From: Acidimicrobiia bacterium | GTDB taxonomy: Bacteria; Actinomycetota; Acidimicrobiia; Acidimicrobiales; Bin134 | DNA: 64,000 nt | Direction of reading: 5' to 3' | Assembly: GCA_009842675.1 (NCBI GenBank) | Contig: VYEX01000062.1 | Coordinates: 15,218 to 79,217, forward strand | In this document: piece by piece, positions 2,855 to 62,535 of the stretch | How positions within the stretch are numbered: the stretch's first letter is position 1 | Layout: the number at the start of each line of letters is the position of its first letter | Position numbers and translations under genes: made by a program | The notes under the pieces: model-generated | Databases searched by the model: none | What the model was told of the DNA's origin: nothing | What the model saw: the letters and a program-made list of their open reading frames with translations, nothing else

Positions 2855-2868
2855 TCCTGTCTTTTATC

Positions 2869-4317: not shown

Positions 4318-4341
4318 TGTTCCGCTAGCTAAATTGGACCA

Positions 4342-30269: not shown

Positions 30270-30398
30270 AGGGTAGAAGTTGCTTTGGCCGATTTCTCAA
30301 GCAAGGTCATGTTTCCTGGAAATAAAGGTGCAGTTAGGGCTAGCGCGGTTGCTATCGTCGCCGGACAACCACCCTCACCTGACCTGAGAGGTATCAAT

Positions 30399-32669
30399 AT
30401 GGCCGCCAACGTTGCCGGTTCATTCGATGCCGAGGTTCGATCCACCCAGTCGTGGATGGCCTCGCCCCGCTTCGAGGGGATTACCCGCCTGTACTCGGCC
30501 CGTCAAGTAGTGGAGCAACGCGGGGCCCTCAATCAGGATCACACCGTGGCTCGATTGGCCTCTGAGCGGTTCTATGCCCGCTTGCGGGAGCTGTTCGAAC
30601 AAGGACAGTGCATCTCCACTTTCGGCCCCTACTCGCCGGGTCAGGCCGTGGCCATGAAGCGAGCCGGGATCGAGGGTATCTACCTGGGCGGATGGGCCAC
30701 TTCCGCGAAGGGTTCTCTGCACGAGGATCCCGGTCCCGACTTGGCCAGCTACCCGCTGGGCATGGTTCCCGACGAGGCGGCAGGGTTGGTCCGAGCGCTG
30801 TTGACCGCCGATCGCAACCAGCGGTTCGCCCGGTCGCGGATGAGCATTGAAGAGCGCATGAGCGCCCCGGAGGTGGACTTCACTCCGTCGATAATCGCCG
30901 ATGCCGATACCGGCCACGGCGGTGACGCCCACGTTCGAAATCTGATCCGCCGATTCGTCGAGGCCGGAGTGCCCGGGTACCACATCGAGGACCAAAAGCC
31001 CGGGGTCAAGAAGTGCGGGCATCAAGGCGGCAAGGTGTTGGTGCCGTGCGACGAACAGATCAAGCGGCTCAATGCGGCCCGATTCCAGTTGGACGTAATG
31101 GGCGTTCCCGGCATCATCGTGGCCCGCACCGATGCCGAAGCTGCCAATTTGTTGGATGGTGGAACTGACGAGCGGGATCAGCCGTTCATCATGGGGGCTA
31201 CCCAGCAATCAGTCCCGTCGTACAAAGATGCCTATCTCGCGGTCCTGCGCCTGTTGGCCGAAGCCGGAGTAGAAGGGGTGAACGGTCATCTGCTGTATGC
31301 AGTGCCCGAGAACCGTTACAAGCGGGCCATTGCCTGGCTTGATCAGACCGGAGTCAACCAGATCATCGAGAAGGCTGCGGTCACGTACCACGCCTCCCCT
31401 GATCCCCGGGCCGACGACGCAGTCGACCGAGCCTCCGATGCGCTGGCCGAAGCGTGGCACCGGGCGTCGGGGCTGGCTACCTATGCCCAGGCCGTGGCCG
31501 ATCAGCTGTCGCTTCGGACATCGGAGGGGGAGAGTTTCGGAATGGAAGTGGGGGAGTGGCTCAGCTTCGCCCGCACAGTCGACACTGCCACCGCCCGAGG
31601 CCGGGCCGCGGAGATGGGTCTTGATGTGGCCTGGAACGCTGAGGTGGCCCGAACCACCGAGGGTTACTACCAGGTGCAGGGTGGCATCCCCTACGCCGTG
31701 GCCAAGTCCCTGGCTGTGGCCCCGTACTGCGACTTGCTTTGGATGGAAACCAAGACCGCCGACCTTGAGGACGCCAAGGAGTTCGCCGAGGCCGTCCATG
31801 CCGTGCATCCCGACAAGATGCTGGCCTACAACCTGTCGCCCTCCTTCAACTGGGACACCACCGGCATGACCGAGGACGAGATGCGCGAGTTTCCCGCCGA
31901 ACTGGGTCAACTCGGGTTCGTGTTCAACTTCATCACCTACGGCGGACACCAAATCGACGGCATGGCCGGCGAGGAGTTTGCCGCCTCCCTTCAACAAGAC
32001 GGCATGCTGGCTCTAGCGCGGCTTCAGAGGAAGTTCCGCCTGGTCGACTCCCCGTACAAGACACCCCAAACGTTGGTGGGTGGCCCCCGGCTCGATGCCG
32101 CTCTCATGGCCAGCTCCGGCCGCACTGCCACCACCCGGGCCATGGGAAAGGGATCGACCCAGTTCCAACACCTCGTACAGACCGAGGTACCCACCCGGGA
32201 GCTCGAAGGCTGGCTCGAGCGGTGGGCACTGCACAACAACGTCGATGCCGAACTGAAGGTGCAACTGCGCCCCTATACCGCGGGTTCCGAGATCCTCGAA
32301 CTTGTGGTTCGCAGCGGCGACAACGACCTGGCCAACGTGGTGTTCGGGGTGCTGCACGACCGGCGCCGTCGGGCCATCCTCTCGGTACGAGACCAGAACA
32401 CCCACAGTCCTGCGTTGCGCCGCAAACGGCTGATGACCCTGATGCACCTCTATCTGATCCGGCGCTACAACGCAGTATCGGTCCAGTATCTGACCCCCAC
32501 CGAGGATAACTTTCGACAGGCCGCGGGTATGCGAGGAATGGGGTTCTACTCCTCGGTATCCGACGAGGTGGGGCAGATCACCGTTGCCGATGTCGACGAA
32601 GAGGTGGTTGTCAACTTGGTTACCGACGACGACTCCCTCCAGCAGCTCATCACCGGACGGGAGACGTAG
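30399..32669 (+). CDS. aceA: isocitrate lyase, long (ICL2/AceAb-type, 756 aa)
   Basis: ICL signature [20 protein letters not shown], and a long C-terminal extension. The ATG at 30399 follows a 129-bp spacer. The upstream 291 codons of the track ORF are antisense to glcB. Confidence 0.9.
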
Positions 32670-39431: not shown

Positions 39432-39701
39432 CAGCGTCTTGATTGACGAAACAAACCTATCGCATTGGATCAGTTCTTCCCGCAGCTTGACATAAAGGGG
39501 TCACCCCCAGATGCCCCGGGGAACCCCACAACTTTACATAACATATATTCTCAACGTTTAGCACCAAAATGGCTGACTGGCAGTTAACGAAATTATCTAT
39601 AGACATCTGAAAAGACACGCGCTAGAGTAATCATCACTGGCTCCGACCAGTGCTATCGGCCTCCCAGGCCCCCCATCGAGAAACATCGAACGGAGGGCCG
39701 A

Positions 39702-40823
39702 ATGGGTACGGTCTGGCCAGTCAAGGCCTTGATTCTTCTGCTTGCACTGGCGGCCGCGGGCTGTGGGTCGGGCGATCACGGAGCACCCGGACCTTCGCAA
39801 ACACCTTCGGAGCAGACCTCCAGCGGCCCAACCGCGGAAGTGCTCGACTTTCAGACTGGTACCGCCAGTACGGCATCCGGACCAGCCCCCACGGCCACTG
39901 GGACATCGGATCAGCGCACCGGTGCAGTTGTACCTCTCATAGCCTCTGCCGTAACGAGTGCTACTCCGAGCCCGGGTGCTGGGGCAGGTGGCTCTCCCCC
40001 AGACCCCACCGCCCGGGCGATTGCCATCCCCGTGCCCACCCGAGATGCAGTTGCTGCTTCATCGCCGCCGAAGCTCTCCCTGCTTCGCAACGCCTCGCAA
40101 TCCAGTCCGTTCCACCAGTTCGGAGACGGCGTATACACCTGGGACGATCACCGGAGGATCGTCGTGCTGGCGGTTCCTGCCGACCACCCATCCTTGGATG
40201 AGGTCAGGGAGATCGGCGGCCATTGGGATGGGACCATTGAAGACACCGCCGGAACACGAGTGTGGGTTCAGCAGTGTGCCCGACAGCTCGCCGATAACGC
40301 CCTTGAATCCTCTGATGCGGTGTATGGAGCGGTCTCGGCTCAGGCCGTTCACGCCTGCATGGGCGGACTGACCCACCTAGCAGAGTTATTTGCCCGCTAT
40401 TGGTGGACTGAGGCAGGGGTCGGTTGCCTGTCCGACGCGGTCACAACTCATTCCCTCCACGGTGACAACCGGTCCAGGCCGCTAGCCGTTTGCCCATCCA
40501 TCGGCTACGACCCGGCTGCGCCTCGGCCGCTGGGATGGTTGGCACAGCGCTGCGCGGAAATCGCGGCCGCCCATCCCAATCCAAAATATCCGTCGGTTGC
40601 CGCCCAGCCGGGTCAACCCCTTCCCTCCTGTTGGGAGCCTCTGCTGGCGATCATTGAAGCCCACGCGGCCGAGAGTGCCGAGATCGGCCTTCCCGACAGC
40701 CCCCACGACTGTTACCACGCGTTCTTGGGCTATGTGTGGGCCCGGCAGACCGATCGGGAGAGCCGCCCGCCCAACGACCTGGCCATCGGCTGCCACTACC
40801 GGGCTTTCGAGGCCATCCCATGA
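39702..40823 (+). CDS. lipoprotein of unknown family with a Cys-rich C-terminal domain
   Basis: MGTVWPVKALILLLALAAAGCGS (signal plus AAGC lipobox) with GGAGGG SD upstream. About 110 residues of low-complexity S/T/P/A/G linker, then a domain with 8 Cys. Confidence 0.7.
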   Translation: MGTVWPVKALILLLALAAAGCGSGDHGAPGPSQTPSEQTSSGPTAEVLDFQTGTASTASGPAPTATGTSDQRTGAVVPLIASAVTSATPSPGAGAGGSPPDPTARAIAIPVPTRDAVAASSPPKLSLLRNASQSSPFHQFGDGVYTWDDHRRIVVLAVPADHPSLDEVREIGGHWDGTIEDTAGTRVWVQQCARQLADNALESSDAVYGAVSAQAVHACMGGLTHLAELFARYWWTEAGVGCLSDAVTTHSLHGDNRSRPLAVCPSIGYDPAAPRPLGWLAQRCAEIAAAHPNPKYPSVAAQPGQPLPSCWEPLLAIIEAHAAESAEIGLPDSPHDCYHAFLGYVWARQTDRESRPPNDLAIGCHYRAFEAIP

Positions 40824-42157
40824 CGGCCTCATCGAGCAGAGCAATGTTGCGAGCCCTGCTGGCTGTTGGCCTGCTGGCTGGCGGGCTAGCACTGGTGGCT
40901 TCCGCCGGCCCATCGGCCCATGCCCATGAACAGACCAGACTCGTAGCGGCCAGCGGAACAGGTCGGTGCCCTTCCGGCATACAGAACTGCTCGGAAACTT
41001 GGACGCACGTCAACTCCTGGACCCACTACACCGCCCGCGTTCCCTCGAACTGCGAAGTTGACATCATCGACCAGTGCGGGGTCCGCGTGACATCCAGGTC
41101 GGCCTCCAGCTCGTGCCGGAATTCCGCCAACTGCGGGCACGGCCCGCACAGCAGCACTCCCCGACCCACTGGCCCCGGCACGTGGACCACATGGAACGGA
41201 CACCAGAACACCAACTACCGATGGTCGGGACCAAGGCAGGAACCCGTCGAACACGAACATGGCACGCCGAATCCGTCTCCGACCCCTTCGCCTTCTGAAC
41301 CGAGCCCCGACCCGTCTCCTGCCCCTTCGCCGTCCGAGCCAAGTCCGGCCCCGCCATTCTTCGACCCGTCTGACATCGACTGGAGCAATTTCGATCCGTG
41401 TGCCAACGGCGGCTGTGTGCCCCCCTGTTTAACCGATGGAATCGCCAACAGCTGCCCGTGGGAGTCGCTCCCACCCAAGGTCTGCACCACGGCGTGGGGC
41501 AAGGTTCAGCGAGAGGCGCTGCTCAGCAGGCTCCGTTGGGAGTCGATTGTTCCCTATTCCCCGGGGTTCACCGGGCACCACCCCGAAGTTCCCGGCGGTC
41601 ATCTGTACTTGACGGCAGCTTCGAGCCCCAACAGTCCGGCTCGCCACTGGACGGCAATTCAGCCGGGCACCACGCTCGACGTGCAGGATGCCCCGGTTGA
41701 CGGATGTTTGTGGACGGCCAATGCCGTCGGCGTGTCTTTGCAAGAGCTGATCCCCCACGAGGCCGCTGATCTGACCAGGCTTAGATCTGCGAGCGCCGTG
41801 GCCGCCGCAGACGAGGCCCACCAAGCCGCGGAATTGTGGGACCGGCTGAGCGTTCAGCGGCGCCAGTGGTTCCAGGCCGCCTTTCCCCGGAATGACCCCC
41901 CAATCGTCTGGTGCTCCCCCGCTGACTTGCCCCCATGGACGATTCCGGCCAGCGACGTGCTTAGCCTTCCATCCGACTGGGAAGACCGATTCGGAAAGTG
42001 CCGTTGGACAATCCCCCGCCGCGGCTTTTGGGAGTGGGAACTCCAAATCCAGTACAGCTCGGAGCAAGGCAACCTCCACACGGAAGTGGTGGCTTCTGAT
42101 CTGTCTTGGTTCCGCGAGCCCACCGGTTACGTCGATCAGCAGGTGACCCTGTGGTGA
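40820..42157 (+). CDS. secreted Cys-rich protein of unknown family with a PSPSEPSP linker
   Basis: The ATG overlaps the upstream stop (ATGA). Signal peptide MTASSSRAMLRALLAVGLLAGGLALVASAGPSAHA. Proline-rich linker PNPSPTPSPSEPSPDPSPAPSPSEPSPAPP. Confidence 0.65.
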   Translation: MTASSSRAMLRALLAVGLLAGGLALVASAGPSAHAHEQTRLVAASGTGRCPSGIQNCSETWTHVNSWTHYTARVPSNCEVDIIDQCGVRVTSRSASSSCRNSANCGHGPHSSTPRPTGPGTWTTWNGHQNTNYRWSGPRQEPVEHEHGTPNPSPTPSPSEPSPDPSPAPSPSEPSPAPPFFDPSDIDWSNFDPCANGGCVPPCLTDGIANSCPWESLPPKVCTTAWGKVQREALLSRLRWESIVPYSPGFTGHHPEVPGGHLYLTAASSPNSPARHWTAIQPGTTLDVQDAPVDGCLWTANAVGVSLQELIPHEAADLTRLRSASAVAAADEAHQAAELWDRLSVQRRQWFQAAFPRNDPPIVWCSPADLPPWTIPASDVLSLPSDWEDRFGKCRWTIPRRGFWEWELQIQYSSEQGNLHTEVVASDLSWFREPTGYVDQQVTLW

Positions 42158-42813
42158 GCGGGCCCGGCCGCGACCAGTGGTCGCCCGCATCCTGGCCGGT
42201 GAGCCTTCGGTGGCGTCTGCTGGCGGCAGCGATCGTGCTGGCCGCCACCGTGGCGACAATCGCGGCCTTATCCCGCGATGGTGACTCCATCTCGGAGGTC
42301 CCGGTGGTGGCCGCTGCCCAGCGGTGGACCGCGGGGCACCCGCCTGGAGAGCTCCTCATCATCGACATGCCCGCCGATAAGGCCATCTTCTTCGTTCATC
42401 CATCGGAGATGGATGGTGCCATTGCCGCCGTGGATGTACCCGAGGGAACGCTGGTATCGCCCCAAATGCTGCGCCCCCGCCAACGTGACGACGACACCAG
42501 GAGAACCACCCTGATGCGGTTCGGTGTGAACGACGAGATGTGGCCCGCTCCCGGTCCAGCGCCTGGTAACCGAGCTGTGTTCTCTTCGTCACCCGGAGGG
42601 TGCGCCGCAGCCTTGGTTACTTTGGTGGCGGTTAACGACGACGGTGTTGTCGAATCCGGTGTGACGGTGGAGGCGGACCCCGAACTGGCCGCGGTGCTCT
42701 CTGATGGCCAGTGGTGGATCTGGGAATCGCCTCCTGGCCGTTGGCCCCTGTGTGAGCCATCGAGAAGCAACCCCTCCCCTACCCTCGATGCAGAAAACAG
42801 GGCGGTCCGCTGA
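42154..42813 (+). CDS. membrane-anchored protein, possibly CpaB/RcpC-like (SAF-type)
   Basis: The GTG overlaps the upstream stop (GTGA). Single N-terminal TM (WRLLAAAIVLAATVATIAAL). AAVDVPEGTLVSPQML resembles SAF-domain motifs. The position before the ATPase gene matches CpaB. Confidence 0.4.
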   Translation: MSGPGRDQWSPASWPVSLRWRLLAAAIVLAATVATIAALSRDGDSISEVPVVAAAQRWTAGHPPGELLIIDMPADKAIFFVHPSEMDGAIAAVDVPEGTLVSPQMLRPRQRDDDTRRTTLMRFGVNDEMWPAPGPAPGNRAVFSSSPGGCAAALVTLVAVNDDGVVESGVTVEADPELAAVLSDGQWWIWESPPGRWPLCEPSRSNPSPTLDAENRAVR

Positions 42814-44357
42814 TGCTCTTGGCGGTAGGCGACCGATGGCTCGACGCCGAGGCAGTGAAGCAGGTCATGGACGGGGTGTTGGAGGGCATGGCCAGTACTG
42901 CCCCTGGGGCAGCCTTGGCCACCTCACCGGCTGAAGTCGACCAGGCGTCGGCCGCCGGCCACCCCACCGTTCTGCTGATGCGGGACGACGAACCCGAGAT
43001 ACGTCTCGAATCAGCAGTGGCATCGGCTGCCGCCGTGTTATGGATCACCACCGCTGATAGCTCCGACGTGCGTTCCCTTCTCCGGTTGGACACAGGGTCG
43101 CGCCGTAACACCCCAATCGTCTCGGTTGTGGTGTCCGACAACCAGCCCGACCGAGAGCGATTTCGCCGCCAACGAGTGATCAGCCTGTGGATACCCCCCG
43201 AACCCGCCCGGCGCGATCTGCGCCGGCTGCATCGACTCGGGCGCCGACTGGCGTGGACGGCGGTCGCGCCTCGCCGGCTAGATCCGCTCGATCGAGAGAC
43301 CCATCTGTGGGCTGCTTCTCAAGCCGCCCAAACCCGCCTGGCCGACCTACTCGAGGAAACCGGGGTCGAGGAGTTTCAGATCAGGGGCGGAGAGTGCATG
43401 ATCGTTCATCGGGCCGAAGGGCAGCGGGAGCGCCGGAACTCGCCCTTTGCGTCCAACGAAGAGTTGATCGAAACAGCCCGCCACCTGGCCAGCTTCTCTG
43501 GTGGCCAACCCCAGCGCTTCGACGTGCTCGACAGTCGGTTGGACATACGCCTCGGTGGCCGGTGGAGGCTCCACGCCGAGGCGTTCATGTGTCATCCCCC
43601 CACGATGGTGCTGCGATCGAACATGGCCGGCGAGGCCACGCTGGGCGATCTCAATGTGGCTACCGCACCGCTTCAGAAGATCCTGATAGGGGCAGTCTCG
43701 GGGCCCGTCAGGGCCAACATTGTGATCGCTGCTGCGATGGGCGGAGGCAAGACCACCCTTTGTCAGGCTCTGCTAGCCACCGTCGACAGCTCCGAGAGGA
43801 TCGACACCATTGAGGACACTCCTGAGCTCCGATTGGCTCAGTACGGCATCCATCCCAACAGCTACGAGCGCCTCACCCGTGACGCCAACAACGACGGCGT
43901 GGGAAAACTGGCCATGAGCGACCATATACGCGACGCCAAACGGGCCAACTCGTCCAAGTTGGTGATAGGCGAGACCAGAGGAGAGGGAACGCTGGCCTTG
44001 CTGGACGCCATGAGCAGCGGGCTGAGCGGTTGTCTGGTCACCCTGCACAGCCAGCCCGGCGCAGGGGTGTTGGCCAAACTGCTGTCCTATGCGTGCAGTG
44101 AAGGCGCAGACCCCCGATTCGCCCGCCAGCAAATTGCCATTGCAGTTCAACTCCTCGTGTGGATGGGCCGCAACGAACTCGGTGAGAGGGTGATCTCCGA
44201 CGTCTCCCAGATCGTCAGCTACGACGAGCGCAATGACACCATCGACACCCGGTGCTTGTGGTCCCTTCGCCCTGGCCAGCGGTGGGCTGCCCCCGCGGGA
44301 CTGCCCCACGGACAGATAGAGCGTCTGTACCAATCCGCGGGGATGAAGGTCCAATGA
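42813..44357 (+). CDS. tadA: TadA/CpaF-family secretion ATPase with an N-terminal extension of about 170 aa
   Basis: Walker A AAAMGGGKTTL, Asp box IEDTPEL, Walker B KLVIGETRG, His box VTLHS. TGATG junction with the upstream gene. Confidence 0.8.
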   Translation: MLLAVGDRWLDAEAVKQVMDGVLEGMASTAPGAALATSPAEVDQASAAGHPTVLLMRDDEPEIRLESAVASAAAVLWITTADSSDVRSLLRLDTGSRRNTPIVSVVVSDNQPDRERFRRQRVISLWIPPEPARRDLRRLHRLGRRLAWTAVAPRRLDPLDRETHLWAASQAAQTRLADLLEETGVEEFQIRGGECMIVHRAEGQRERRNSPFASNEELIETARHLASFSGGQPQRFDVLDSRLDIRLGGRWRLHAEAFMCHPPTMVLRSNMAGEATLGDLNVATAPLQKILIGAVSGPVRANIVIAAAMGGGKTTLCQALLATVDSSERIDTIEDTPELRLAQYGIHPNSYERLTRDANNDGVGKLAMSDHIRDAKRANSSKLVIGETRGEGTLALLDAMSSGLSGCLVTLHSQPGAGVLAKLLSYACSEGADPRFARQQIAIAVQLLVWMGRNELGERVISDVSQIVSYDERNDTIDTRCLWSLRPGQRWAAPAGLPHGQIERLYQSAGMKVQ

Positions 44358-45169
44358 CCGGGTCCACCGTCATCGTCCTTCTCGCTGGGATCGCGCTGAT
44401 GTCCGTCATCTGGTGGCCGAATTCTGCAAACAGCCCCACCACACTGCTGCTGGGAAGCGTGGTGCTGTCCCCGCGACCCTCCCTTCGAGCAGGCACGATT
44501 GCAGCAATTGTGGCGGTTGGACTCGGCTTTGTCCTTGGACTGCTGTTGGTTGGGGCGACCACCGGGCTAGCAGCCATGATCCTGACTACCGTCGGAGTCT
44601 GGTCGGTAGCAGTGCAGATCCGCTCGCGCCGAAGCCTTCAGGCATCCGACGAACTGGCCCAGCTGACAAACGGCTTGGCCAACCAGGCCTTGGTGGCCCC
44701 CACCGTGGTGGAGGCCGTGCGCCAAGCTGCGCCCCTGATCCCCGGACAGGTCGGCTCGGCTGCCCGGCGAATGGCCGCCGAATGCGAGACCGGAGGTCTA
44801 GTAGAAGCCGCCAACCGCTTTGCCACCGCCATCCGACGCCCAGTTGCCGAAATGCTGGCCACGGTACTGACCGAGGCGTTCAGGGGTGGATCCCAATGGG
44901 TGGGCTTGGCCGGAGTCCTTGCCGAGGAGGCCAACGAGGCGGCCGACACGGCGCGGCACTTCCACCGGCATGTGGCCGCGCTCATGCCCCAGATCGCTGT
45001 CACACTGGTGATGGCCGTCGCCATGTTGGCCATCACCGGATTCGCCGCCAAGGACGTGGGTCGGTGGCTGACCTCTCCGCCGGGACAGCAGCTTCTCCTT
45101 CTCCTGGCCGTGCTCGCCGCGGCCCTCTGCGCCCGGGTGCTGGCCCCGGCCTGGAGGCTTAGCCGATGA
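44354..45169 (+). CDS. tadB: TadB-like (T2SS-F domain) inner-membrane protein
   Basis: ATGA overlap. N-terminal TMs, a cytoplasmic helical domain, then C-terminal TMs, directly after the ATPase gene. The assignment is by topology and gene order. Confidence 0.55.
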   Translation: MTGSTVIVLLAGIALMSVIWWPNSANSPTTLLLGSVVLSPRPSLRAGTIAAIVAVGLGFVLGLLLVGATTGLAAMILTTVGVWSVAVQIRSRRSLQASDELAQLTNGLANQALVAPTVVEAVRQAAPLIPGQVGSAARRMAAECETGGLVEAANRFATAIRRPVAEMLATVLTEAFRGGSQWVGLAGVLAEEANEAADTARHFHRHVAALMPQIAVTLVMAVAMLAITGFAAKDVGRWLTSPPGQQLLLLLAVLAAALCARVLAPAWRLSR

Positions 45170-45879
45170 TCCTGCTAGCCGGATTGTCCGGAGTAGCCGC
45201 AGTGGCCGTTCTGCTCCTTGCCCCGCCCAAAACGGGCAGCCGGACTGCGGTACAGGCCGCGGCAATGGGGTGGCCGCCCAATCAGATATCGACGGCGGGC
45301 TGGACTCTGGCCGTCGCCGGGTCGGCAGCGGGTGCACTGGTCGGACGGGCGACGTTCGGATGGGCCGCGGGCTTGGCCATGGCCGTTGTGGTCGGAACCT
45401 GGCTGCCCTGGTTGGTGCCGGCCGCTATTCGGGCCTTCGCCGCCGCGGCCTACCGCACTGAACGGGACCAGAAGATGCTCGAGTGGTTGCGCAAGCTGCG
45501 GCTTCTGACGTCGGCGGGCCAACCCATCAACGCCGCCGCGGTAAACGCTGCTCTGACCGTTTCTGGCCGGGCATTCACGGTGGCTCAGGGGGCCATAGGG
45601 GCAGCCCTGGACGCCGGTCGCGACCCGCTACCCGCGGTGTCCTCGGCCATTGCCGGTTCCCCCGCGGAGCCCCTGCTGGCTTCGGTGGTGGCCGCTGAGC
45701 GGGCCGGCGCGGCCTCCTCTGACCTCTTGGACAATTCTTTGTCCCGATCCGTTCGGACCCTGGAGTCCGAGCGGCGCCTGGCAATTGACCAGCTAAGCCG
45801 GGCCATCGGAACCACGGTCACCCTGGTGGCCGCCATCGCTGGTCTCGTAGTCATGGCCGCTGTGATCTTCGTGCTCTGA
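45166..45879 (+). CDS. tadC: TadC-like (T2SS-F domain) inner-membrane protein
   Basis: ATGA overlap and the same architecture as the preceding gene. Confidence 0.55.
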   Translation: MILLAGLSGVAAVAVLLLAPPKTGSRTAVQAAAMGWPPNQISTAGWTLAVAGSAAGALVGRATFGWAAGLAMAVVVGTWLPWLVPAAIRAFAAAAYRTERDQKMLEWLRKLRLLTSAGQPINAAAVNAALTVSGRAFTVAQGAIGAALDAGRDPLPAVSSAIAGSPAEPLLASVVAAERAGAASSDLLDNSLSRSVRTLESERRLAIDQLSRAIGTTVTLVAAIAGLVVMAAVIFVL

Positions 45880-45916
45880 AGGCCACCGGTCGTCTCAAAC
45901 TCAGGAGAACCCCGTC

Positions 45917-46129
45917 ATGCAATCAGCCATCGTCCAAATGATCTTGATCGTGGTCGGCATCGCCGCCGCGGCCATCGTGTCGATCATCGTCTACGCCCAA
46001 CTCAGCTCCAACGCCCCCGAAGACGGGGACAACATCGACAAGACGCGGATCACGACTGAAACGCTCTGCAAGGCGGTCGGAGGGACATGGACTGCTGGCT
46101 CAGGCACGAGCCCGGGTACATGCGCATAG
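45917..46129 (+). CDS. small hydrophobic-N-terminus protein, pilin-like but without a Flp G/xxxxEY leader
   Basis: Strong SD (CAGGAGAA). MQSAIVQMILIVVGIAAAAIVSIIVYAQL followed by a short soluble tail with two Cys (TLCK...GTCA). Occupies the pilin slot of the cluster. Confidence 0.5.
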   Translation: MQSAIVQMILIVVGIAAAAIVSIIVYAQLSSNAPEDGDNIDKTRITTETLCKAVGGTWTAGSGTSPGTCA

Positions 46130-46135
46130 CAGACT

Positions 46136-46537
46136 ATGACCTCCTCCCTGGTCGTCCTTCGCACGTCGGTTCTGCTGATGCTGTTGCTGGCCACCTTCAC
46201 CGGATTGTACGTGCGCCACGTCACCCGGCTGGCGGCCGACGCGGGTGCTCAGTCGGCAGCCAGCGCGGCGGTCCAGGCTGCTACCGCCGCCGGATGGCAG
46301 TGCCAAACCGCTCCCCCACCCGAGTCAGTCATTGCCGCGGCCCGAGCAGCCTGGAGTCAGATAGACCACCTCTCGGTTCAGCCGGTGGACGTGGAGGTAT
46401 CTGCCGACGCTTGCAATCTGATCACCACGGTCACCGCCGCGCCGCTGGATTCCCGGGTGTCCTCGCTGAACACCACCGCTGCCGCCTGTCGCGCCGCGGT
46501 CCGCACCGCCGTGCTGAGCGTACCCGGCTCGTGTTGA
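46136..46537 (+). CDS. TadE-like pseudopilin
   Basis: N-terminal TM (LVVLRTSVLLMLLLATFTGL), Ala-rich helix, about 130 aa, immediately after the pilin-like gene. Confidence 0.45.
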   Translation: MTSSLVVLRTSVLLMLLLATFTGLYVRHVTRLAADAGAQSAASAAVQAATAAGWQCQTAPPPESVIAAARAAWSQIDHLSVQPVDVEVSADACNLITTVTAAPLDSRVSSLNTTAAACRAAVRTAVLSVPGSC

Positions 46538-46547
46538 GGCCAACCTT

Positions 46548-46964
46548 ATGAGCGACGCCATCGCCTTCCTCCTCATCCTCCCTGCTCTGGTGCTGGGAAT
46601 CGTGGTGCTGGATGCCGCCGGGACCCTGGGAACAGCCAGATACCGGACCTCGACCTTTGCCGAGGCCGCAGCCCAACACGCCGCAGATGCCTTGGCCTCC
46701 TCCCCCGGCGAGACCGAGCCATCCGCCCGCAACCGATGGGGTGAGATGGTGGCCACAATCGAGCAGTCTGGACTGGCCGCCACCGCAGGGGTATGCGACC
46801 AGGCCGACGCCGTGTTCAACATCAGCTTGGTGTCCCAGCCGAGCCCGGCCCGCAACCCTGGCGCTTCTCCGTCGGTGGCCACCGTGGTCAGCTGCCCGGT
46901 GCCGTTGGGGGGATTGCTCGCCACCAACCGGGTTGTGGCAACCAATGTTGAATCGGTGCCGTAG
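46548..46964 (+). CDS. TadE-like pseudopilin
   Basis: MSDAIAFLLILPALVLGIVVLD resembles the TadE N-terminal motif (acidic residue followed by FALVLPVLL). Confidence 0.5.
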   Translation: MSDAIAFLLILPALVLGIVVLDAAGTLGTARYRTSTFAEAAAQHAADALASSPGETEPSARNRWGEMVATIEQSGLAATAGVCDQADAVFNISLVSQPSPARNPGASPSVATVVSCPVPLGGLLATNRVVATNVESVP

Positions 46965-46968
46965 AGCG

Positions 46969-47340
46969 ATGTACATCCCGATTGTGCTGTTGTCGCTGGG
47001 GCTGGCCGTGGCGGTGGCCACCGGATCGCTGGCCGACCATGGCAACCTGATCACCAGCCGAAATCTGGCCGCCATGAGAGCTGAACGGGCCGCAGACGCC
47101 TTCATCGACGGGTGCGGTGGTGGGGGATGCCGTGCCAGCGCGGTCAACACAACCCGCCTCGACGGCACCAGGTTGTCTGGGTGCATCCAGATAGTCGAAG
47201 GCAACCTGGTCCTGCGAGTCGAAGGGCAAGTCCCCTGGAGTCCCCGAGTGTTCACCGGCTTAACACCGGCTTCCGCGGTGACCGCGGTTCAACTTGGAGG
47301 TTTCGGACCTTCAGCGACAACGGTGTTGGCGTCGTGCTGA
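46969..47340 (+). CDS. TadE/TadG-like pseudopilin (third)
   Basis: ATG at 46969, 4 nt after the upstream stop. N-terminal TM (MYIPIVLLSLGLAVAVATGSL). 123 aa. The longer track ORF from 46612 overlaps the previous gene. Confidence 0.4.
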   Translation: MYIPIVLLSLGLAVAVATGSLADHGNLITSRNLAAMRAERAADAFIDGCGGGGCRASAVNTTRLDGTRLSGCIQIVEGNLVLRVEGQVPWSPRVFTGLTPASAVTAVQLGGFGPSATTVLASC

Positions 47341-47417: not shown

Positions 47418-48647
47418 GTGTCTCGAAGGATAGATATTGAGCTGACCAGCCAACGGCCCGATGGCTCTTGGACCTGGCGGGCCGCCGGTGCCCGCGAGCC
47501 CAAGGGCGAACTGGCCGGCGATCTGATTGCCTTCTCCGCCAATGTGGGTGACGAGCTGACCGTCGAGGCCGAGTTCCACATGGACGGCATCGAGATCATC
47601 GAGGCATTCGAGTCCAAGAAGAAGCGTCCCATGCCCGAAACTCTCGAGATTCTGGGCTCCGGTAGGGATCAACCCCTCGTAACCACCCAACTGGTGCCTA
47701 GCCGCAAGAGTCGAGACCGTGATCGCCCACGGGGTGACCGCCGGGGTCGTCAGGATCGACGCAGCCGAGGCGACCGAAAAGAGCGTGATCACCAAGAGTC
47801 TCGCCGCCAGGACGATCGCCCCAAGGCCAAGCGACTGCGCCCGGGTCGAACCCACCGCCAAGCGCTTATCGAAGACCTGCCCGAAGATCAACAGTCGGTA
47901 GCGGAGCGGATGGTTCGCGAGGGCGTCAGCTCGGTAGAGCAGGCCCTGCGTGACCAGCGTAAGAAGGCCCGCGATGCCGCCAAGGCCAAAAAGGAGGCCG
48001 CCCAAAAGGCCGCCAAAGAAGCCGAATCCCCCCAAACAGAACCAGCCGATGACTTCTTGAGTGCGGCCGGCAAACTGCTGCCTCGCATGCGCGCCGCGGA
48101 GTGGCGTGATCGGGCTGACGCTGCGCTGGCCGGCATCGACGAGATCGACCTGCGCGATCTCCGCTCGGTGGTGGTAGCCGCCGAGGCCGGAGCGGCCGAT
48201 GAGGAGGCTAAAGCACTGGCTGAAGAGCTCCGCACCAAGCTCACCGAGCGGGTCGACCGAGAGCACGCCGAATGGCTGGCCGAAGTGGCCGCCACGCTGG
48301 CCGATGGCCGCATGGTCCGAGCCTTGCGGCTTAGCTCTCGACCCCCCAAGGCCGGGGTGCCCCTCCCCCAGGACATGGTCACCCGGCTGACAGACGCAGC
48401 CAGCGCCGCTTTGACCAGCGATACGCCAACAAAGCGCTGGACTACTGTCCTCGGCGCGGTTGCGTTCTCACCGGTGCGCCGGACTGTGCAGCCTCAGGGC
48501 ATACCGGAGAAGCCCGACAAGGAGTTGCTGGCTGAGGTAACCAAGCTCTCCGAGCGGGTTCCCCACATTGCGGCCTTGTTCGGGGTGGAGCCCACTCCGC
48601 CACCCAAGCGCGGTCGTCGGGGTGCGGGGAAGCAGGCCTCTACCTAG
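47418..48647 (+). CDS. conserved hypothetical protein with an Arg/Asp-rich low-complexity centre
   Basis: Strong GC3 bias on the + strand (the 325-aa antisense ORF is rejected). The N-terminal domain RIDIELTSQRPDGSWTWRAAG is followed by SRKSRDRDRPRGDRRGRQDRRSRGDRKERD and a Lys/Ala/Glu-rich helix. Confidence 0.6.
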   Translation: MSRRIDIELTSQRPDGSWTWRAAGAREPKGELAGDLIAFSANVGDELTVEAEFHMDGIEIIEAFESKKKRPMPETLEILGSGRDQPLVTTQLVPSRKSRDRDRPRGDRRGRQDRRSRGDRKERDHQESRRQDDRPKAKRLRPGRTHRQALIEDLPEDQQSVAERMVREGVSSVEQALRDQRKKARDAAKAKKEAAQKAAKEAESPQTEPADDFLSAAGKLLPRMRAAEWRDRADAALAGIDEIDLRDLRSVVVAAEAGAADEEAKALAEELRTKLTERVDREHAEWLAEVAATLADGRMVRALRLSSRPPKAGVPLPQDMVTRLTDAASAALTSDTPTKRWTTVLGAVAFSPVRRTVQPQGIPEKPDKELLAEVTKLSERVPHIAALFGVEPTPPPKRGRRGAGKQAST

Positions 48648-53891: not shown

Positions 53892-54755
53892 TCAGTCCTC
53901 GCTGGGGGAAACAGCCTGAGATGCCTCAAGGGCGTTGGTGTCGGCCTCGCCAGTCGTCTCGCGGCGATTGCGACGGTCGCGCAGCCAGCCGACGACGATT
54001 GCCGCCTCGTAGAACAAGTACATAGGCACCGACAGCACCATCAAGGTGAAGGGGTCTCCACTGGGGGTTATCACCGCCACGAGGGCCACAATGCCGACAA
54101 TGGCGAAACGGCGCCACCGAATGAGCTGCCGGTAGTGGATGATCCCCGCGAACTGCAAGAACACCAGCAGTATGGGAAACTCGAAGCCAATACCGAACGC
54201 AGCCATCATCTTGATCACGAAGGACAGATATTTGGCCGGCGAAAAGCCGGTAACCAGGTCTTCGCCTCCGATGGTGGCCAGGAATTTGAGCGCTCGGGGG
54301 ATGCTCCAGTAGGCCAGGCCAGCACCGAGAGCGAACAGAAGCGCGCCGACCACGGTGAATGCCGCCGCGTGGCGACGCTCACGAGGGTAGAGACCGGGCT
54401 GCACAAACCTCCACACTTGCCAGAGAATGATCGGAATGGCCAGGGTCAATCCGCCGTAGCCCGCGACGGTCAGGCGAACAGAAAACGGCTCCAGTGGATC
54501 AAGCACCAAGAGCTCGCATCCGCCGAAGAGGTTTTGTCGGGCGGCCTCCTCAGCCACGGCCTGTTCGGGAACAATGTCGCAATAAGGCTGGACCATCAGG
54601 TCCAGGATCTGGGGATAGAGCACCCAGCAGGCCACGGCTCCGGCAACCACCGCCAATATGCACTTGATGAGCCTCGACCGCAGCTCAACAAGGTGCCCCA
54701 TCAATGGCATGGTCCCGTCGGTCGAGCGGGCGCGGTCCATCCCCGCGTCGTTCAC
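53892..54755 (-). CDS. tatC: twin-arginine translocase subunit TatC
   Basis: MPLMGHLVELRSRLIK motif and 6-TM layout. The GTG start overlaps the tatA stop (GTGA). Confidence 0.9.
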   Translation of the reverse strand: MNDAGMDRARSTDGTMPLMGHLVELRSRLIKCILAVVAGAVACWVLYPQILDLMVQPYCDIVPEQAVAEEAARQNLFGGCELLVLDPLEPFSVRLTVAGYGGLTLAIPIILWQVWRFVQPGLYPRERRHAAAFTVVGALLFALGAGLAYWSIPRALKFLATIGGEDLVTGFSPAKYLSFVIKMMAAFGIGFEFPILLVFLQFAGIIHYRQLIRWRRFAIVGIVALVAVITPSGDPFTLMVLSVPMYLFYEAAIVVGWLRDRRNRRETTGEADTNALEASQAVSPSED

Positions 54756-55075
54756 GGGCTGCTTTGCGGTTGGTCGAAGGCCTGTGTTGCTCCCGGCCCA
54801 TCCTTCTCGCCGTCAGTCGTTGCCCCTGGCTCCTTTTCTTTGCCGTTGGCCAGCTTGTCCTCTTCGACGGCAATTCTGCCTCGACGACGGGCCTCCTCCT
54901 CAATGGGCTCGTCGAGGGCATTTTGCAACTCCTGCTGGAACCCCGTGGAGATCTTGCGCACCTGTCGGATTACATTGCCGATCTGACGGGCCGCCCCGGG
55001 CAGCTTCTCAGGTCCCAACACCACTAGAGCCACCACCACGATTACCGCGATCTCAGCCCATCCGAGGTTGCCCAC
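54752..55075 (-). CDS. tatA: twin-arginine translocase subunit TatA/E
   Basis: MGNLGWAEIAVIVVVALVVLGPEKLPGAARQIG (TM plus amphipathic helix) and a charged tail. Confidence 0.85.
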   Translation of the reverse strand: MGNLGWAEIAVIVVVALVVLGPEKLPGAARQIGNVIRQVRKISTGFQQELQNALDEPIEEEARRRGRIAVEEDKLANGKEKEPGATTDGEKDGPGATQAFDQPQSSP

Positions 55076-55109
55076 CCCCAGAGGCTACCGCTCTACTTGC
55101 TTTCTGAGG

Positions 55110-55889
55110 TTGTCCGAGCCGGAGGCAGCAACCAATGATGAAGGCGTGCCTCCCCGGATCTCTCCGCTTCGAATTCCGCCTCTGGGATTCGCCCATAGGG
55201 GCGCTCGAGCCCACGAGCGGGAGAACACTCTGGCTGCCTTCTCGCTTGCGTTGGAGATGGGAGCTGGCGGTCTGGAGAGCGATGTCTGGGTGACCGCCGA
55301 CGGCCAGGCGGTGCTCGACCATGATGGCCTGGTTCGCTCATCCCGGTGGCGTCGAAAGCGTCCTATCTCTGATTGTCGCCGCGACGAACTGCCCGACCAC
55401 ATCCCCGCCCTGGCGGAGCTCTACAGCGAGTGCGGCACAAACTTCGAGTTATCGCTCGACTTGAAGGATGCCGGGGCAGCGTCGGCGGTGGTCGACAGTG
55501 TGGACGCGGTGGCCGCCGACACCGGCGAGGCCCTCAGAGAGCGACTGTGGCTGTGCCACCCCGATGTCGACACCCTGGTACTTCTGCGGAAGCAATGGCC
55601 CGACGTTCGCCTATGCAATTCCACCCGGCTGAGTCGCATGGACGGTGGTCCGGAGCGGCGGGCTGCGGTGTTGGCCGAATCCGGGATCGACTCGGTGAAC
55701 CTCCATCAAACCGACTGGACCGGTGGCCTGGTCACATTGTTCCACCGGTTTGGAGTTCTGTGCTTTGGGTGGGATGCGCAGCAGCCCCGAGTGCTCAACG
55801 AATTGCTGGATATGGGAATCGACGCGGTCTATAGCGACCACGTCGACCGACTGAGGATGGCGCTGGATAGCTGGTACCCTGACCGGTGA
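55110..55889 (+). CDS. glycerophosphodiester phosphodiesterase family protein
   Basis: GFAHRGA...ENTLAAF...GLESDVWVTADGQAVLDHD. The start is uncertain (TTG 55068, TTG 55110 or GTG 55146). Confidence 0.75.
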   Translation: MSEPEAATNDEGVPPRISPLRIPPLGFAHRGARAHERENTLAAFSLALEMGAGGLESDVWVTADGQAVLDHDGLVRSSRWRRKRPISDCRRDELPDHIPALAELYSECGTNFELSLDLKDAGAASAVVDSVDAVAADTGEALRERLWLCHPDVDTLVLLRKQWPDVRLCNSTRLSRMDGGPERRAAVLAESGIDSVNLHQTDWTGGLVTLFHRFGVLCFGWDAQQPRVLNELLDMGIDAVYSDHVDRLRMALDSWYPDR

Positions 55890-56758
55890 TGAGTGATCGT
55901 GCCGCAAATGCAAAGGCTTTCGTTGCTCAGAACCAGGAACCCGTCGTTTTTGACGGCGTAGTGGCCAAGTACGGCAACGGTCACATCGCTCTTTCTGGCA
56001 TTAGCTGTAAGTTCCAACACGGGACCTCCACCGCTCTGGTAGGTGCCAACGGATCGGGAAAGACCACTCTGCTCCGAATGATGTGCGGTCTTGCCCAGCC
56101 ATACCAGGGGACCATCACCCCAGATCCCTCCAAGAAGACGATCGCCCTAGTGGCGCAACAGCACGGGCAACGGTCGTGGATGCCGCTGACAGTGGCCAAC
56201 GTCTTACGCATGTCCCGGTTCCGTGACCGGGGCTTGGTCAAGCGCTTCAGCGCTGCGGATCGGATTCTCATCGAGGAATCGGCCGAGCGCCTCGAGGTAG
56301 CCAACCTGAAGAATCGCCAGTTTCAAGAGTTGTCTGGAGGCCAACGCCAGAGGGTAATGGTTGCCCAGGCATTGGCCCACGACGCTGACGTGCTTTTGAT
56401 GGACGAGCCCATCACCGGATTGGACATACCCAGCCAGGAGGCGATTCTCCGAATAGTCGATGAGGAGCGCCAACGGGGCCGCATCGTGGTTATTTCAACC
56501 CACCACATGGACGAAGCCGAACTCTGCGACCAAGTGCTCCTCTTGGCCAACCGGATGGTCGCAGCAGGAACACCCGGCGAGGTGCTCACCAACAAGAATC
56601 TCCAAGAAGCCTTCGGCCTCCGCATGGCCCACGGCGACGAAGAAGACTGTGTCTTCCACGGAGAGCACGACAGCCACGAAGGCGGTGTCGTCCATGTCTT
56701 CAACGATCACGGCCATGGCCACGATCACGGCCATGGCCACGACCACTTCGACTGTTAG
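55886..56758 (+). CDS. metal ABC transporter ATP-binding protein (ZnuC/TroB-like) with a His-rich C-terminal tail
   Basis: Walker A GANGSGKTT, signature LSGGQRQR, Walker B LLMDEP. Tail HGDEEDCVFHGEHDSHEGGVVHVFNDHGHGHDHGHGHDHFDC. The start overlaps the GDPD stop (GTGATG). Confidence 0.8.
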   Translation: MMSDRAANAKAFVAQNQEPVVFDGVVAKYGNGHIALSGISCKFQHGTSTALVGANGSGKTTLLRMMCGLAQPYQGTITPDPSKKTIALVAQQHGQRSWMPLTVANVLRMSRFRDRGLVKRFSAADRILIEESAERLEVANLKNRQFQELSGGQRQRVMVAQALAHDADVLLMDEPITGLDIPSQEAILRIVDEERQRGRIVVISTHHMDEAELCDQVLLLANRMVAAGTPGEVLTNKNLQEAFGLRMAHGDEEDCVFHGEHDSHEGGVVHVFNDHGHGHDHGHGHDHFDC

Positions 56759-56790
56759 CGGTTCGCAGACGGACCACTAGCCGCCTGTAG

Positions 56791-57438
56791 CTACAGGCGG
56801 CCGAAGTCGGTCATCGGCCACAGTCTCAGGAAGGCGTGGCCCACTATCAGATCCTCAGAGATCGGGCCGAATGTCCGGCTATCGGTTGAGTTTGGCCGGT
56901 TGTCGCCCATGACGAACACCTCCCCCGCCCCAATCAGACATCCCTCGTCCACTATCGCGGCGCACCCGGATGGCATCTTTCCGGTAGTAATTCCCGACGA
57001 TTCCAGATAGGGCTCGTGGAGCCTCCGCCCATCGATGTACACGTCCCCTTCCACGAATGCGATTACCTCGCCCGGCAAGGCGATCACCCGCTTTATGAGA
57101 TCGTCCTCTTGGCGGCCACTTACCCCCCGGGGCCGCTCGAATACCACCAGGTCCCCGCGATCAACGTCGCCGATGTCGTAGCCCAGCTTGTTAACCAGGA
57201 CTCGGTCGCCGTTGCCCAGCGTGGGCTCCATGGATGTGAACCGGATGTAGTAGGCCTGGAAAAGCACAGATCGCAGTATCAGGGCCAGCACCAGTGCGCC
57301 GGCCAAGACCGCCACCCACTCCGCTATGACACGAGCCGTGGACTTCTCCTTCTTGCCGTTCCCAGGGCCTTCCTCACCGTCGGAATGTTCTGAAACGGCC
57401 ACCGAGGCCTCCGACTGCTCCGGCTGATCGATGCTCAT
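56791..57438 (-). CDS. lepB: signal peptidase I
   Basis: Box B SMEPTL, box D KRVIALPGE, box E GDNRPNSTDSR. Confidence 0.9.
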   Translation of the reverse strand: MSIDQPEQSEASVAVSEHSDGEEGPGNGKKEKSTARVIAEWVAVLAGALVLALILRSVLFQAYYIRFTSMEPTLGNGDRVLVNKLGYDIGDVDRGDLVVFERPRGVSGRQEDDLIKRVIALPGEVIAFVEGDVYIDGRRLHEPYLESSGITTGKMPSGCAAIVDEGCLIGAGEVFVMGDNRPNSTDSRTFGPISEDLIVGHAFLRLWPMTDFGRL

Positions 57439-59371: not shown

Positions 59372-59387
59372 CAGCGCGACGAAGACA

Positions 59388-60746: not shown

Positions 60747-60783
60747 GCCTATCTGCTTCCCATGCCGAAAGTCCGCCGCTCCA

Positions 60784-61461
60784 TCAGCCCAAGAGCCCGG
60801 CCAGCTCGTCGCCTTCGATTCTTTGGAACGCCCGCCTCCCGGTCTCGCGCACCAGGATGGCAACTTCGAGGTCGTCGGCTTCCAGCGTCCGCTCCTCGCC
60901 GGCCAGAGCTGCCGCCGCGGCTTGGACCGCATCGCCCACTGGCCAGTCCCGGTCGTAGGTCTCACCCAGCCTCTCGGCAATGGAATCGGCCTCACCACCT
61001 AGAACGGTGAAGCCTGATTCGTCGTTCACTGTTCCGTCGTAGAGAACATGGAACATCTGATCGCCGCTGGGATCGATAGTCACTTCAGTCACCAGGATTT
61101 CCACCTCCATCGGCTTCATTTCGTGGGTAAAGGTCTGACCCAGCACTTGGGCGTACTGATTGGCCAAGCTCCGGGCGTCCACGTCCTCGCGGCTATAGGT
61201 GTAACCCTTGAGGTCGGCGTGGCGAACGCCGGCGATTCGGAGTTGGTCGAATTCGTTGTAGCGGCCCACCCCGGCGAAAGCGATGCGATCGTAAATCTCA
61301 CTGACCTTGCGCAATGTATTGGAGCGGTTCTCGGCGCAGATCAAGATACCGTCGCGAACGCTAAGCGCAGTTAAGGCCCGGCCGCGGGCAATTCCCTTGC
61401 GGGCGAAGTCGGCCCGATCCTTCATCAGCTGTTCTGGCGCTACGTAGAAGGGCATGGTCAC
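60784..61461 (-). CDS. prcA: 20S proteasome alpha subunit
   Basis: [28 protein letters not shown]... is a typical PrcA N-terminus. 4-nt overlap with prcB. Confidence 0.9.
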
Positions 61462-62258: not shown

Positions 62259-62274
62259 AGTTTGCAGACTACCG

Positions 62275-62469: not shown

Positions 62470-62535
62470 CTCATCCCCCTGATACCCGGATGCGTGTCGA
62501 TCACGATATCGCGCTGACCCTGAGGCGAGGACAAT

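Follow-up and report, generated by a model that had tools for sequence, protein, structure and literature searches.

Leader cleavage is held to be a prerequisite for the assembly of type IV filaments, and the tad systems of Mycobacterium tuberculosis, Bifidobacterium breve and Micrococcus luteus all depend on a prepilin peptidase. Archaeal type IV pilins carry a class III signal peptide, which is cut by PibD or EppA. According to a recent review, pilin, prepilin peptidase, ATPase and platform protein make up the set of four proteins that no type IV filament system lacks (PMC10191384). The pilins of the three actinobacteria display the Flp motif, a cleavable Gly-terminated leader and a Glu-Tyr pair (PMC9531140, PMC6916266), and Tad systems as a whole are thought to derive from archaeal Epd-like pili (PMC6668835). 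Here we describe a ten-gene module (genes 1 to 10, Table 1) in a 64,000-nucleotide stretch of an Acidimicrobiia bacterium (assembly GCA_009842675.1, contig VYEX01000062.1, positions 15,218 to 79,217 of the forward strand), this whole stretch being referred to below as the window. We consider it reasonably probable, judging from sequence analysis, that the product of this operon of sponge-associated Acidimicrobiia is a type IV filament machine derived from Tad and related to type IVc, with subunits that would be born mature and would need no peptidase. No paper describing the module or leaderless pilins was found in the literature.

The module resembles the Tad/Flp (type IVc) systems of Aggregatibacter and Caulobacter in its tightly coupled genes, in an ATPase whose nearest relative is CpaF, in two successive proteins at the platform positions and, more weakly, in a protein of CpaB/SAF likeness; as in those systems, the candidate for the major subunit is very small and is followed by pilin-like proteins of larger size. 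On the contrary, its small subunit has no leader, no Gly at position -1 and no Glu5-Tyr6 pair, neither TadV nor TadZ is found in the module, the ATPase carries an extra 176-residue alpha/beta domain, and genes 1 and 2 are new. Secretin, RcpB and TadD are also missing, as is expected in a monoderm.

The actinobacterial tad loci (Rv3654c-Rv3660c of M. tuberculosis, tad2003 of B. breve and that of M. luteus) share with the module the order ATPase, TadB, TadC, small pilin and minor pilins, as well as TIGR03819 as the best model for the ATPase and Rv3654c-family TadE-like proteins as the commonest weak match for genes 8-10. They differ from it in having two rather than three minor-pilin-like genes and in the CpaB-like protein and gene 2 that the module has in addition, and its ATPase scores 130.6 bits against TIGR03819, whose cut-off is 373.15. 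When the module was compared with the M. tuberculosis, B. breve and M. luteus loci, no gene-for-gene match to a characterised actinobacterial Tad subtype was found among them. The tad locus of M. luteus also lacks TadZ and thus provides a precedent (PMC6916266). According to Denise et al. (2019), many actinobacterial systems that stand beside Tad in phylogeny lack identifiable minor pilins or TadC and stay 'generic' (PMC6668835). The module would probably fall in this group, with the difference that those systems were not dissected and that neither leaderless subunits nor peptidase independence is described there (PMC6668835). Relative to archaeal type IV pilins (Pilin_N/DUF1628; 8q30, 6w8x, 8fjs), it is the N-terminal helix of gene 7 that aligns best, residue 3 to residue 3, although the similarity is short, sub-significant and confined to the hydrophobic helix. 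For the Acidimicrobiia order UBA5794, a 2025 study reported that sponge genomes lack type IVa genes and cpaE at the KEGG level (PMC12008989).

Table 1. Position and main properties of the module, its genes and the gap that precedes it. Coordinates are those of the window, and locus counts refer to the 80 related loci described in the text; aa, amino acids; ORF, open reading frame.
Feature	Position	Strand	Properties
Ten-gene module	39702-47340	+	All ten ORFs translate cleanly, no frame problems
Intergenic region (270 bp)	39432-39701	+	Only long non-coding gap adjoining the module; upstream of gene 1
Gene 1	39702-40823	+	373 aa; predicted lipoprotein, lipobox LAAAG-C21, one N-terminal hydrophobic segment
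Gene 2	40820-42157	+	445 aa; predicted secreted or anchored; conserved in 67 loci
Gene 3	42154-42813	+	219 aa; bitopic, N-terminal membrane anchor plus SAF-like domain; in 78 loci
Gene 4, N-terminal domain	42813-43340	+	Residues 1-176; predicted six-stranded alpha/beta, invariant D7, without P-loop
Gene 4, ATPase core	43341-44357	+	Residues 177-514; predicted divergent CpaF/TadA-type secretion ATPase
Gene 5	44354-45169	+	271 aa; polytopic, TadB position; in 80 loci
Gene 6	45166-45879	+	237 aa; predicted T2SSF-family platform protein, TadC-like; in 79 loci
Gene 7	45917-46129	+	70 aa; leaderless, pilin-like, Flp position; candidate major filament subunit
Gene 8	46136-46537	+	133 aa; leaderless, pilin-like, four invariant Cys; minor-subunit candidate
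Gene 9	46548-46964	+	138 aa; leaderless, pilin-like, two invariant Cys
Gene 10	46969-47340	+	123 aa; leaderless, pilin-like, motif W-x-P-x-[LV]-x-x-G-L-T-P

Start sites and pilin likeness of genes 7 to 10

Orthologues of the module genes were collected by tblastn and iterated local hidden Markov model searches in 80 related loci, which belong to Poriferisocius, Aldehydirespirator, Spongiisociaceae, Poriferisodalis and one Microthrixaceae metagenome-assembled genome (MAG) and were taken with 10 kb of flank each where the contig allowed. Genes 7-10 all open directly with a hydrophobic helix, and for each of them the start position is identical in every orthologue (76-80 per gene). No leader peptide was detected on them in the window, in these orthologues or in 17 clusters of gene 7-related proteins. 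Gene 7 begins with M-Q-S-A-I-V-Q, continues as a 24-residue hydrophobic helix and ends in a small C-terminal loop closed by C51 and C69, both of which are invariant, as is W58. Its start codon stands at the identical aligned position in 80/80 orthologues, with a Shine-Dalgarno-like motif 5-16 nucleotides upstream in 75 of them, and in 49 of the 80 no other in-frame start occurs before the upstream stop, which some loci have at a distance of only 2-4 codons; the window likewise has no alternative in-frame start. Public gene calls agree with these lengths (59-74 residues). The clusters just mentioned were the only relatives returned by an exhaustive HMMER search of 1.84 billion representative proteins and, since all 17 comprise 62-77 residues and all align from residue 1-3, the family appears small, narrow and uniformly leaderless.

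Similar features are displayed by the three larger genes. In the window, the ATG of gene 8 is preceded at a distance of two codons by an in-frame stop, and no alternative start is available to 73 of 76 orthologues. Gene 9, whose N-terminus reads M-[SDN]-[DE]-A-[IV]-A-...-L-P in the alignment, has no alternative upstream start in the window and matches no Pfam family. Gene 10 keeps its start in 76 loci and encodes four conserved Cys, of which three are invariant and the fourth occurs in 90% or more of the sequences. In-frame stops 3-11 codons upstream are found in many orthologues of genes 9 and 10, and for genes 7-10 as a whole such stops are located 2-5 codons upstream in numerous loci. A hidden leader was considered for gene 10, for which a start at TTG 46933 or ATG 46945 of the window would yield a leader with the end 'MLNRCRRA', and was rejected, because the upstream peptide is not conserved and many loci have a stop 3-4 codons upstream of the gene 10 start. 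As far as start sites can be read from sequence, this comparison shows genes 7-10 all to be translated without a leader peptide. Gene 7, sitting in the Flp position, had been overlooked as a pilin candidate in the parts list of a preliminary description of this DNA.

That description had reported neither a Flp prepilin with a G/xxxxEY site nor a TadV peptidase nor TadZ in the window, and a six-frame motif scan of its 64 kb agrees with this, as it revealed no A24 peptidase signature, no deviant Walker A motif of ParA/TadZ (KGGxGK[ST]), no small hydrophobic G/xxxxEY ORF and no TadE motif. The multi-pass membrane proteins of the window are of the ABC-3, MFS, MMPL and TatC families, an S26 signal peptidase is also encoded, and none of them is of the A24 type. 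When the same scan was applied to all ORFs of the 80 loci with their 10-kb flanks, A24, TadZ/ParA, Flp and TadE motifs were again all absent, so that their absence is a constant property of this type of locus; gene 7 itself matched neither the Flp nor the DUF4244 models. These negatives concern the window and the sequence within 10 kb of the 80 loci. A lack of leaders on genes 7-10 would account for the missing peptidase more readily than would a lost gene or a copy serving from another part of the genome, and a pilin that is present but leaderless appears the likeliest reason for finding no peptidase at the locus.

Relationships of genes 7-10 with known pilins were explored through profiles, models and mutual alignments. 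The top five matches of the gene 7 profile against all PDB sequences are type IV filament subunits (E 0.057-0.82), these being the archaeal pilins 8q30, 6w8x and 8fjs, an archaellin and bacterial PilE1. The alignments pair residue 3 of gene 7 with the third residue of the mature chains, and with residue 15 in a chain deposited with a 12-residue leader, and a weak match to archaeal Pilin_N is displayed by 4 of 28 family members. The AlphaFold2 model of gene 8 (96 sequences, predicted local distance difference test score, pLDDT, 86.9) consists of an N-terminal helix comprising residues 2-51, a second helix and a three-stranded sheet, and its predicted shape is that of a pilin-like 'lollipop'. 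The gene 10 profile is weakly related to the Thermus narrow-pilus pilin PilA5 (E 0.48), and those of genes 8 and 9 gave only noise against the PDB. For genes 8-10 together, the commonest NCBIfam match was TIGR03816 (Rv3654c-family TadE-like), found in 7 of 57 orthologues, always below threshold and with a best E of 0.0014; gene 8 contributed weak matches in 2 of its 24 members. Pfam TadE (PF07811) matched neither genes 8-10 of the window nor 24 gene 9 orthologues. Thus, of the three TadE-like pseudopilins proposed in the preliminary description, the likeness persists at the sub-threshold level of TIGR03816 and is not seen with the Pfam model. More generally, Pfam and NCBIfam scans of the window proteins and of the orthologue sets returned nothing above threshold for genes 1, 2, 5 and 7-10.

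The N-terminal helix of gene 9 aligns weakly with gene 8 (E 0.0014), the N-terminus of gene 8 is in register with gene 7, and the four families are alike only over their first 24-50 residues, in register from residue 1. By analogy, a likeness confined to this region is the pattern observed among the pilins of one system. The class III signal peptide of pilins consists of a hydrophilic leader with a terminal Gly or Ala, followed by a hydrophobic helix of 20-25 residues (PMC10191384). Having the helix but no such leader, and no Glu5, genes 7-10 are not type IV pilins by definition; nonetheless, considering architecture and weak homology, they are probably pilins, each item being weak and all of them pointing in the same direction.

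Positions 2 and 7 of gene 7 deserve separate mention. Within the 17 clusters, an acidic residue at position 2 is accompanied by Lys or Arg at position 7 in 12/12 cases, and an uncharged one (Gln or Ser) by an uncharged residue in 5/5. The pairs found at the 80 loci are Q/Q (40), D/K (27), E/K (5), V/E (4), E/R (3) and D/R (1). Because the i to i+5 spacing does not place both side chains on one helix face, a salt bridge between subunits is proposed, and this acid-base pair may, by analogy, stand in for the contact of Glu5 with the N-terminal amine.

Motor, platform and accessory proteins

Gene 4 had been identified as a CpaF/TadA ATPase, an assignment that profile searches reinforce. It matches PF00437 (T2SSE) with 54.6 bits against a cut-off of 24.9, and its Walker A (MGGGKTT), Asp box (IEDTPEL), Walker B (KLVIGETRG) and His box (VTLHS) motifs are intact, with their residues invariant across the clade in the alignment. 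Its closest solved relative is CpaF (9e24, 8rkd; E 1e-24 over residues 178-480), which stands 16 orders of magnitude ahead of GspE2, FlaI and VirB11 (E ~1e-8), and its best NCBIfam model is the actinobacterial TadA family model, TIGR03819, at the score below cut-off given above. The sequence thus identifies gene 4 as a divergent hexameric ATPase of the CpaF/TadA type, the predicted motor of the module. TIGR03819 is associated with a 'helicase-secretion neighbourhood', and the flanking genes were found to contain no CpaE-like protein, no Flp (G...EY) and no DEAH-type helicase. Near-identical relatives of gene 4 are present in Candidatus Poriferisocius (Acidimicrobiales), the sponge-associated taxon to which the window itself is assigned, and full-length relatives with 54-63% identity occur in other sponge-associated Acidimicrobiia.

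Residues 1-176 of gene 4 have no counterpart in CpaF and are conserved throughout the clade. AlphaFold2 modelling from a 116-sequence alignment yielded a six-stranded alpha/beta sandwich (pLDDT 85.6; predicted template modelling score, pTM, 0.80), for which Foldseek ranked flavodoxin-like structures first (E 3e-5, template modelling score 0.55) and receiver and ParA/BcsQ structures lower. The sole PDB profile match of the domain was a response-regulator receiver (E 0.25), and no Pfam family was matched in 26 members. The possibility of a fused TadZ, a ParA/MinD-like protein with an atypical receiver domain, was considered and rejected because the domain has no P-loop; its fold is generic, flavodoxin- or receiver-like, and no TadZ match was obtained. 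The absence of TadZ coincides here with the presence of this extra ATPase domain, which may, as a conjecture, take over a scaffolding or regulatory role of the TadZ type.

Regarding the platform, gene 6 exceeds the cut-off of PF00482 (T2SSF) with 28.8 bits against 25.2 over residues 107-234, and is by this sequence measure a bona fide T2SSF protein; its family profile found no match in the PDB. Gene 5 displays the same topology, with two N-terminal membrane segments, a soluble domain of ~130 residues and C-terminal membrane segments, and hhalign aligns both proteins in register, weakly, over 172 columns (E 0.0075, probability 5%). From its position, its topology and this alignment, gene 5 is presumed to be the first platform protein, in the TadB position. 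The two T2SS-F-like proteins of the preliminary description are therefore upheld by the family model in the case of gene 6, and not in the case of gene 5, where T2SSF matched 0/24 orthologues.

Gene 3 scores 18.8 bits with SAF, below the cut-off of 21, and SAF matches are found in 9 of 22 orthologues (best E 2.6e-4); the match to TIGR03177 (pilus_cpaB) has an E of 0.025, and the family profile gave no match in the PDB. As a bitopic protein encoded before the motor, gene 3 thus appears weakly CpaB/RcpC-like, a likeness that rests on sub-threshold matches and was missing from the earlier parts list. Apart from a signal-peptide-like N-terminus, gene 2 has a region rich in Cys, a Pro/Ser/Thr linker and, at its C-terminus, a conserved domain of ~225 residues, in which C296, W298, W340, C365, C394 and W406 are invariant in the alignment. 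This domain is conserved down to ~21-25% identity. Gene 2 matches Pfam in 0/20 members and is, on this sequence evidence, a module-specific protein. Gene 1, for which no Pfam or NCBIfam family was matched and whose orthologues were found at only 14 of the 80 loci, is in the same terms a clade-specific accessory protein. The preliminary description had interpreted the whole as a reduced or divergent Tad apparatus with lineage-specific accessories. 'Divergent' agrees with the CpaF-nearest ATPase and the tad-like gene order, and genes 1 and 2, without known family, answer to the accessories, while 'reduced' is misleading because a pilin is not what the locus lacks, gene 7 being a good candidate for the major subunit.

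Conservation, operon layout and surroundings

The order of genes 2-10 is retained in 67-80 of the 80 loci, an arrangement that is therefore far beyond chance. A more distant relative of gene 7 (P0251) is accompanied by a complete gene 2-10 module in a genome of 3.0 Mb. Coordinates and all junctions of the ten co-directional genes were re-derived and are identical to those reported before: coupled junctions are found at ATGA 40820, GTGA 42154, TGATG 42811-42815, ATGA 44354 and ATGA 45166, and the later junctions, from genes 6/7 to 9/10, are gaps of 37, 6, 10 and 4 nucleotides. The intergenic region upstream of gene 1 is the likely promoter region of the operon. Its single sigma-70-like match (39600-39628) is no better than those in shuffled sequence, and promoter and terminator scans produced chance-level results only. 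The G+C content of the module (0.645-0.664) is slightly higher than the window average (~0.62).

Upstream, the module is flanked by MMPL, MpaB-like and ferredoxin/metallo-beta-lactamase genes, and downstream by genes for a charged 409-residue protein, NUDIX, GNAT and ThyX. This downstream context is conserved across the 36 Poriferisocius-clade loci with recovered flank, and the module is therefore regarded as a vertically inherited chromosomal operon and not as an island. A mobile island, an integrative and conjugative element or a phage was ruled out in view of the housekeeping flanks (MMPL, MFS, ThyX, NUDIX, GNAT) and of the conserved downstream context. The highly charged 409-residue protein (47418-48647) matches no Pfam family, starts 78 nucleotides after gene 10 on the same strand, and keeps its position throughout the Poriferisocius clade and not in other clades.

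Some genomes carrying the module contain a second, diverged locus of the same type, with an ATPase 61-68% identical (L037 13138-13643, L038 13196-13714, L039 13124-13633 and L042 12779-13291). This second type lacks genes 1 and 2 and has two tandem gene 7-like genes, the second of which starts with M-V-E-A-I-I-E and has a longer C-terminal loop. A gene 7-like (71 residues) and gene 10-like (134 residues) pair stands alone, with neither ATPase nor platform genes, on one mobile-element- or phage-like 30-kb ENA contig (L083 8001-8624 and L084 4608-5231). The pair is present twice on this contig, which could be an assembly concatemer, and the other genes there include a Dam-type methyltransferase, a serine-recombinase-like gene, Amidase_2 and AAA_25. 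This contig may be a mobile element that supplies subunits to the machine of a host. Two local irregularities were also recorded among the related loci. In L046 (11545-13400), two degenerate tandem copies of the last ~70 codons of the ATPase, ~40% identical at the protein level, lie downstream of the intact ATPase gene, with the gene 5 orthologue displaced ~1.8 kb downstream. In L027 (12469-13197), a complete-chromosome MAG, the gene 6 orthologue is split into three ORFs, reflecting either a pseudogene or assembly frameshifts.

Elsewhere in the window, a metal-uptake-like cluster (2384-5205) comprises a Fur-like regulator, a ZnuA-like lipoprotein with a run of ~90 His, Asp and Glu residues (HDEDEHEDDHDDHE...) and an ABC-3 permease (201 bits). 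An ABC ATPase (55886-56758) ends in a His-rich tail (HGHGHDHGHGHDH). In the region 28089-32669, a 1047-residue ORF on the + strand contains an isocitrate-lyase-like sequence with a KKCGH motif; its first ~250 codons overlap a - strand ORF resembling the C-terminal part of malate synthase G, and its true start is probably well downstream of 29526. A Pup-proteasome-like cluster on the - strand (57453-63999), read from translations only, includes two WYL/PafBC-like regulators, a PafA-like ligase, proteasome alpha and beta subunits, a 64-residue Pup-like ORF ending in GGQ (62275-62469) and a Dop-like gene cut off by the end of the window. Genes for TatA, TatC and signal peptidase I (53892-57438) are located just upstream of it.

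Alternative explanations and implications

Several observations weigh against a filament machine with leaderless subunits. Hydrophobic helices are known to attract weak pilin matches of the kind described here; genes 7-10 match no pilin family model significantly, their PDB and Pfam pilin matches lying at E 0.01-1, and the classical hallmarks of pilins, a leader ending in Gly or Ala and Glu5, are absent from all four. Foldseek found no significant match for the gene 8 model (best E 0.029), and gene 5 is matched neither by T2SSF nor in the PDB. The covariation of positions 2 and 7 in gene 7 may reflect only one or two evolutionary events and, as independent changes are perhaps so few, it is a lead rather than a result. 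Finally, in B. breve the peptidase is encoded at another locus (PMC6916266), and prepilin peptidases are often unlinked or shared (PMC6668835, PMC6916266). The last two points, together with the lack of significant pilin matches and with searches confined to the window and the 10-kb flanks, would suit an ordinary Tad pilus with Flp, TadV and perhaps TadZ encoded elsewhere, genes 7-10 then being membrane-anchored accessories of the TadG, PilN or PilO kind. Such an arrangement is nevertheless unlikely, considering that (i) gene 7 lies exactly at the actinobacterial flp position and has a strong ribosome-binding site of its own, (ii) its family is small and always leaderless, with filament subunits as best PDB matches, in register with their mature N-termini, (iii) a linked flp, tadV or tadZ was found in 0/80 loci, and (iv) the second locus present in some genomes is of the same kind and not a canonical one.

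A pseudopilus exporter or a device for DNA uptake or transfer is also rather unlikely. In such a device, genes 7-10 would form a short filament that drives substrates, for example the gene 2 protein, or binds DNA, through the cell wall. The model ranking first for the ATPase in NCBIfam bears the name 'TadA family conjugal transfer-associated ATPase', which points in this direction, as do the conserved, predicted secreted gene 2 protein encoded in the operon, the mobile-element-like contig with only a gene 7-like and gene 10-like pair, and the fact that Tad pili mediate transformation in M. luteus (PMC4322843, PMC6916266). However, the 130 bits obtained with that model fall well short of its cut-off (373), neither a helicase nor ComEA/ComEC nor a relaxase adjoins the module, and gene 2 has its own Sec-type signal and therefore needs no dedicated exporter. 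Regarding a secretion system rather than a pilus, which had been raised as a possibility in the preliminary description, nothing in the analysis favours secretion. That the locus is a decaying, non-functional Tad remnant, having lost pilin signal peptides, peptidase and TadZ, would fit the missing hallmark motifs and the fragmented gene 6 of one relative (L027), but is highly improbable in view of ten intact frames, invariant catalytic motifs in the ATPase, invariant Cys and Trp residues in genes 2, 7, 8 and 10, and synteny kept across lineages whose ATPases are only 51-57% identical to that of the window.

Should genes 7-10 indeed be leaderless subunits of a filament machine, its assembly could be envisaged as follows. 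The four proteins would insert through Sec and the signal recognition particle as N-in/C-out bitopic proteins exposing only 2-6 residues to the cytoplasm, an orientation suggested by the acidic flank C-terminal to the helix and by the conserved extracytoplasmic Cys pairs. Since no leader would have to be cleaved off, they would be immediately competent for assembly, gene 7 presumably as the major subunit and genes 8-10 as minor or priming ones. The gene 4 hexamer, docked on genes 5 and 6, would then extract and polymerise gene 7 without a prepilin peptidase, a step modelled on the established CpaF/TadBC mechanism. Gene 3, and perhaps genes 1 and 2, would act outside the membrane, the latter two as extracytoplasmic accessory proteins possibly serving cell-wall crossing or adhesion. 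Besides a long adhesive pilus, the product could be a short pseudopilus or a fibre for DNA uptake; in a sponge symbiont, attachment or cell-cell contact appears its likeliest use, with secretion or DNA uptake also possible.

A further and more tentative proposal, plausible to us though short of probable, is that the module represents the first type IV filament family without a prepilin peptidase, in which one major and three minor subunits are genetically 'pre-matured', translation starting at the +1 position of a processed pilin, and in which the acid-base pair of positions 2 and 7 replaces the contact between Glu5 and the N-terminal amine. If true, such a peptidase-free family would go against the rule by which every type IV filament system has a pilin, a peptidase, an ATPase and a platform protein (PMC10191384), and would constitute the smallest self-contained set for type IV filament assembly. 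A natural leaderless system would show what the leader and its removal serve, whether membrane targeting and topology, timing or release from the membrane, and would offer a simpler machine to reconstitute. Two conserved uncharacterised families, gene 2 and the N-terminal domain of the ATPase, are tied to the module. For the abundant and uncultured sponge symbionts that carry it, the module would be a conserved surface or secretion apparatus, and hence a candidate for host attachment or cell-cell contact.

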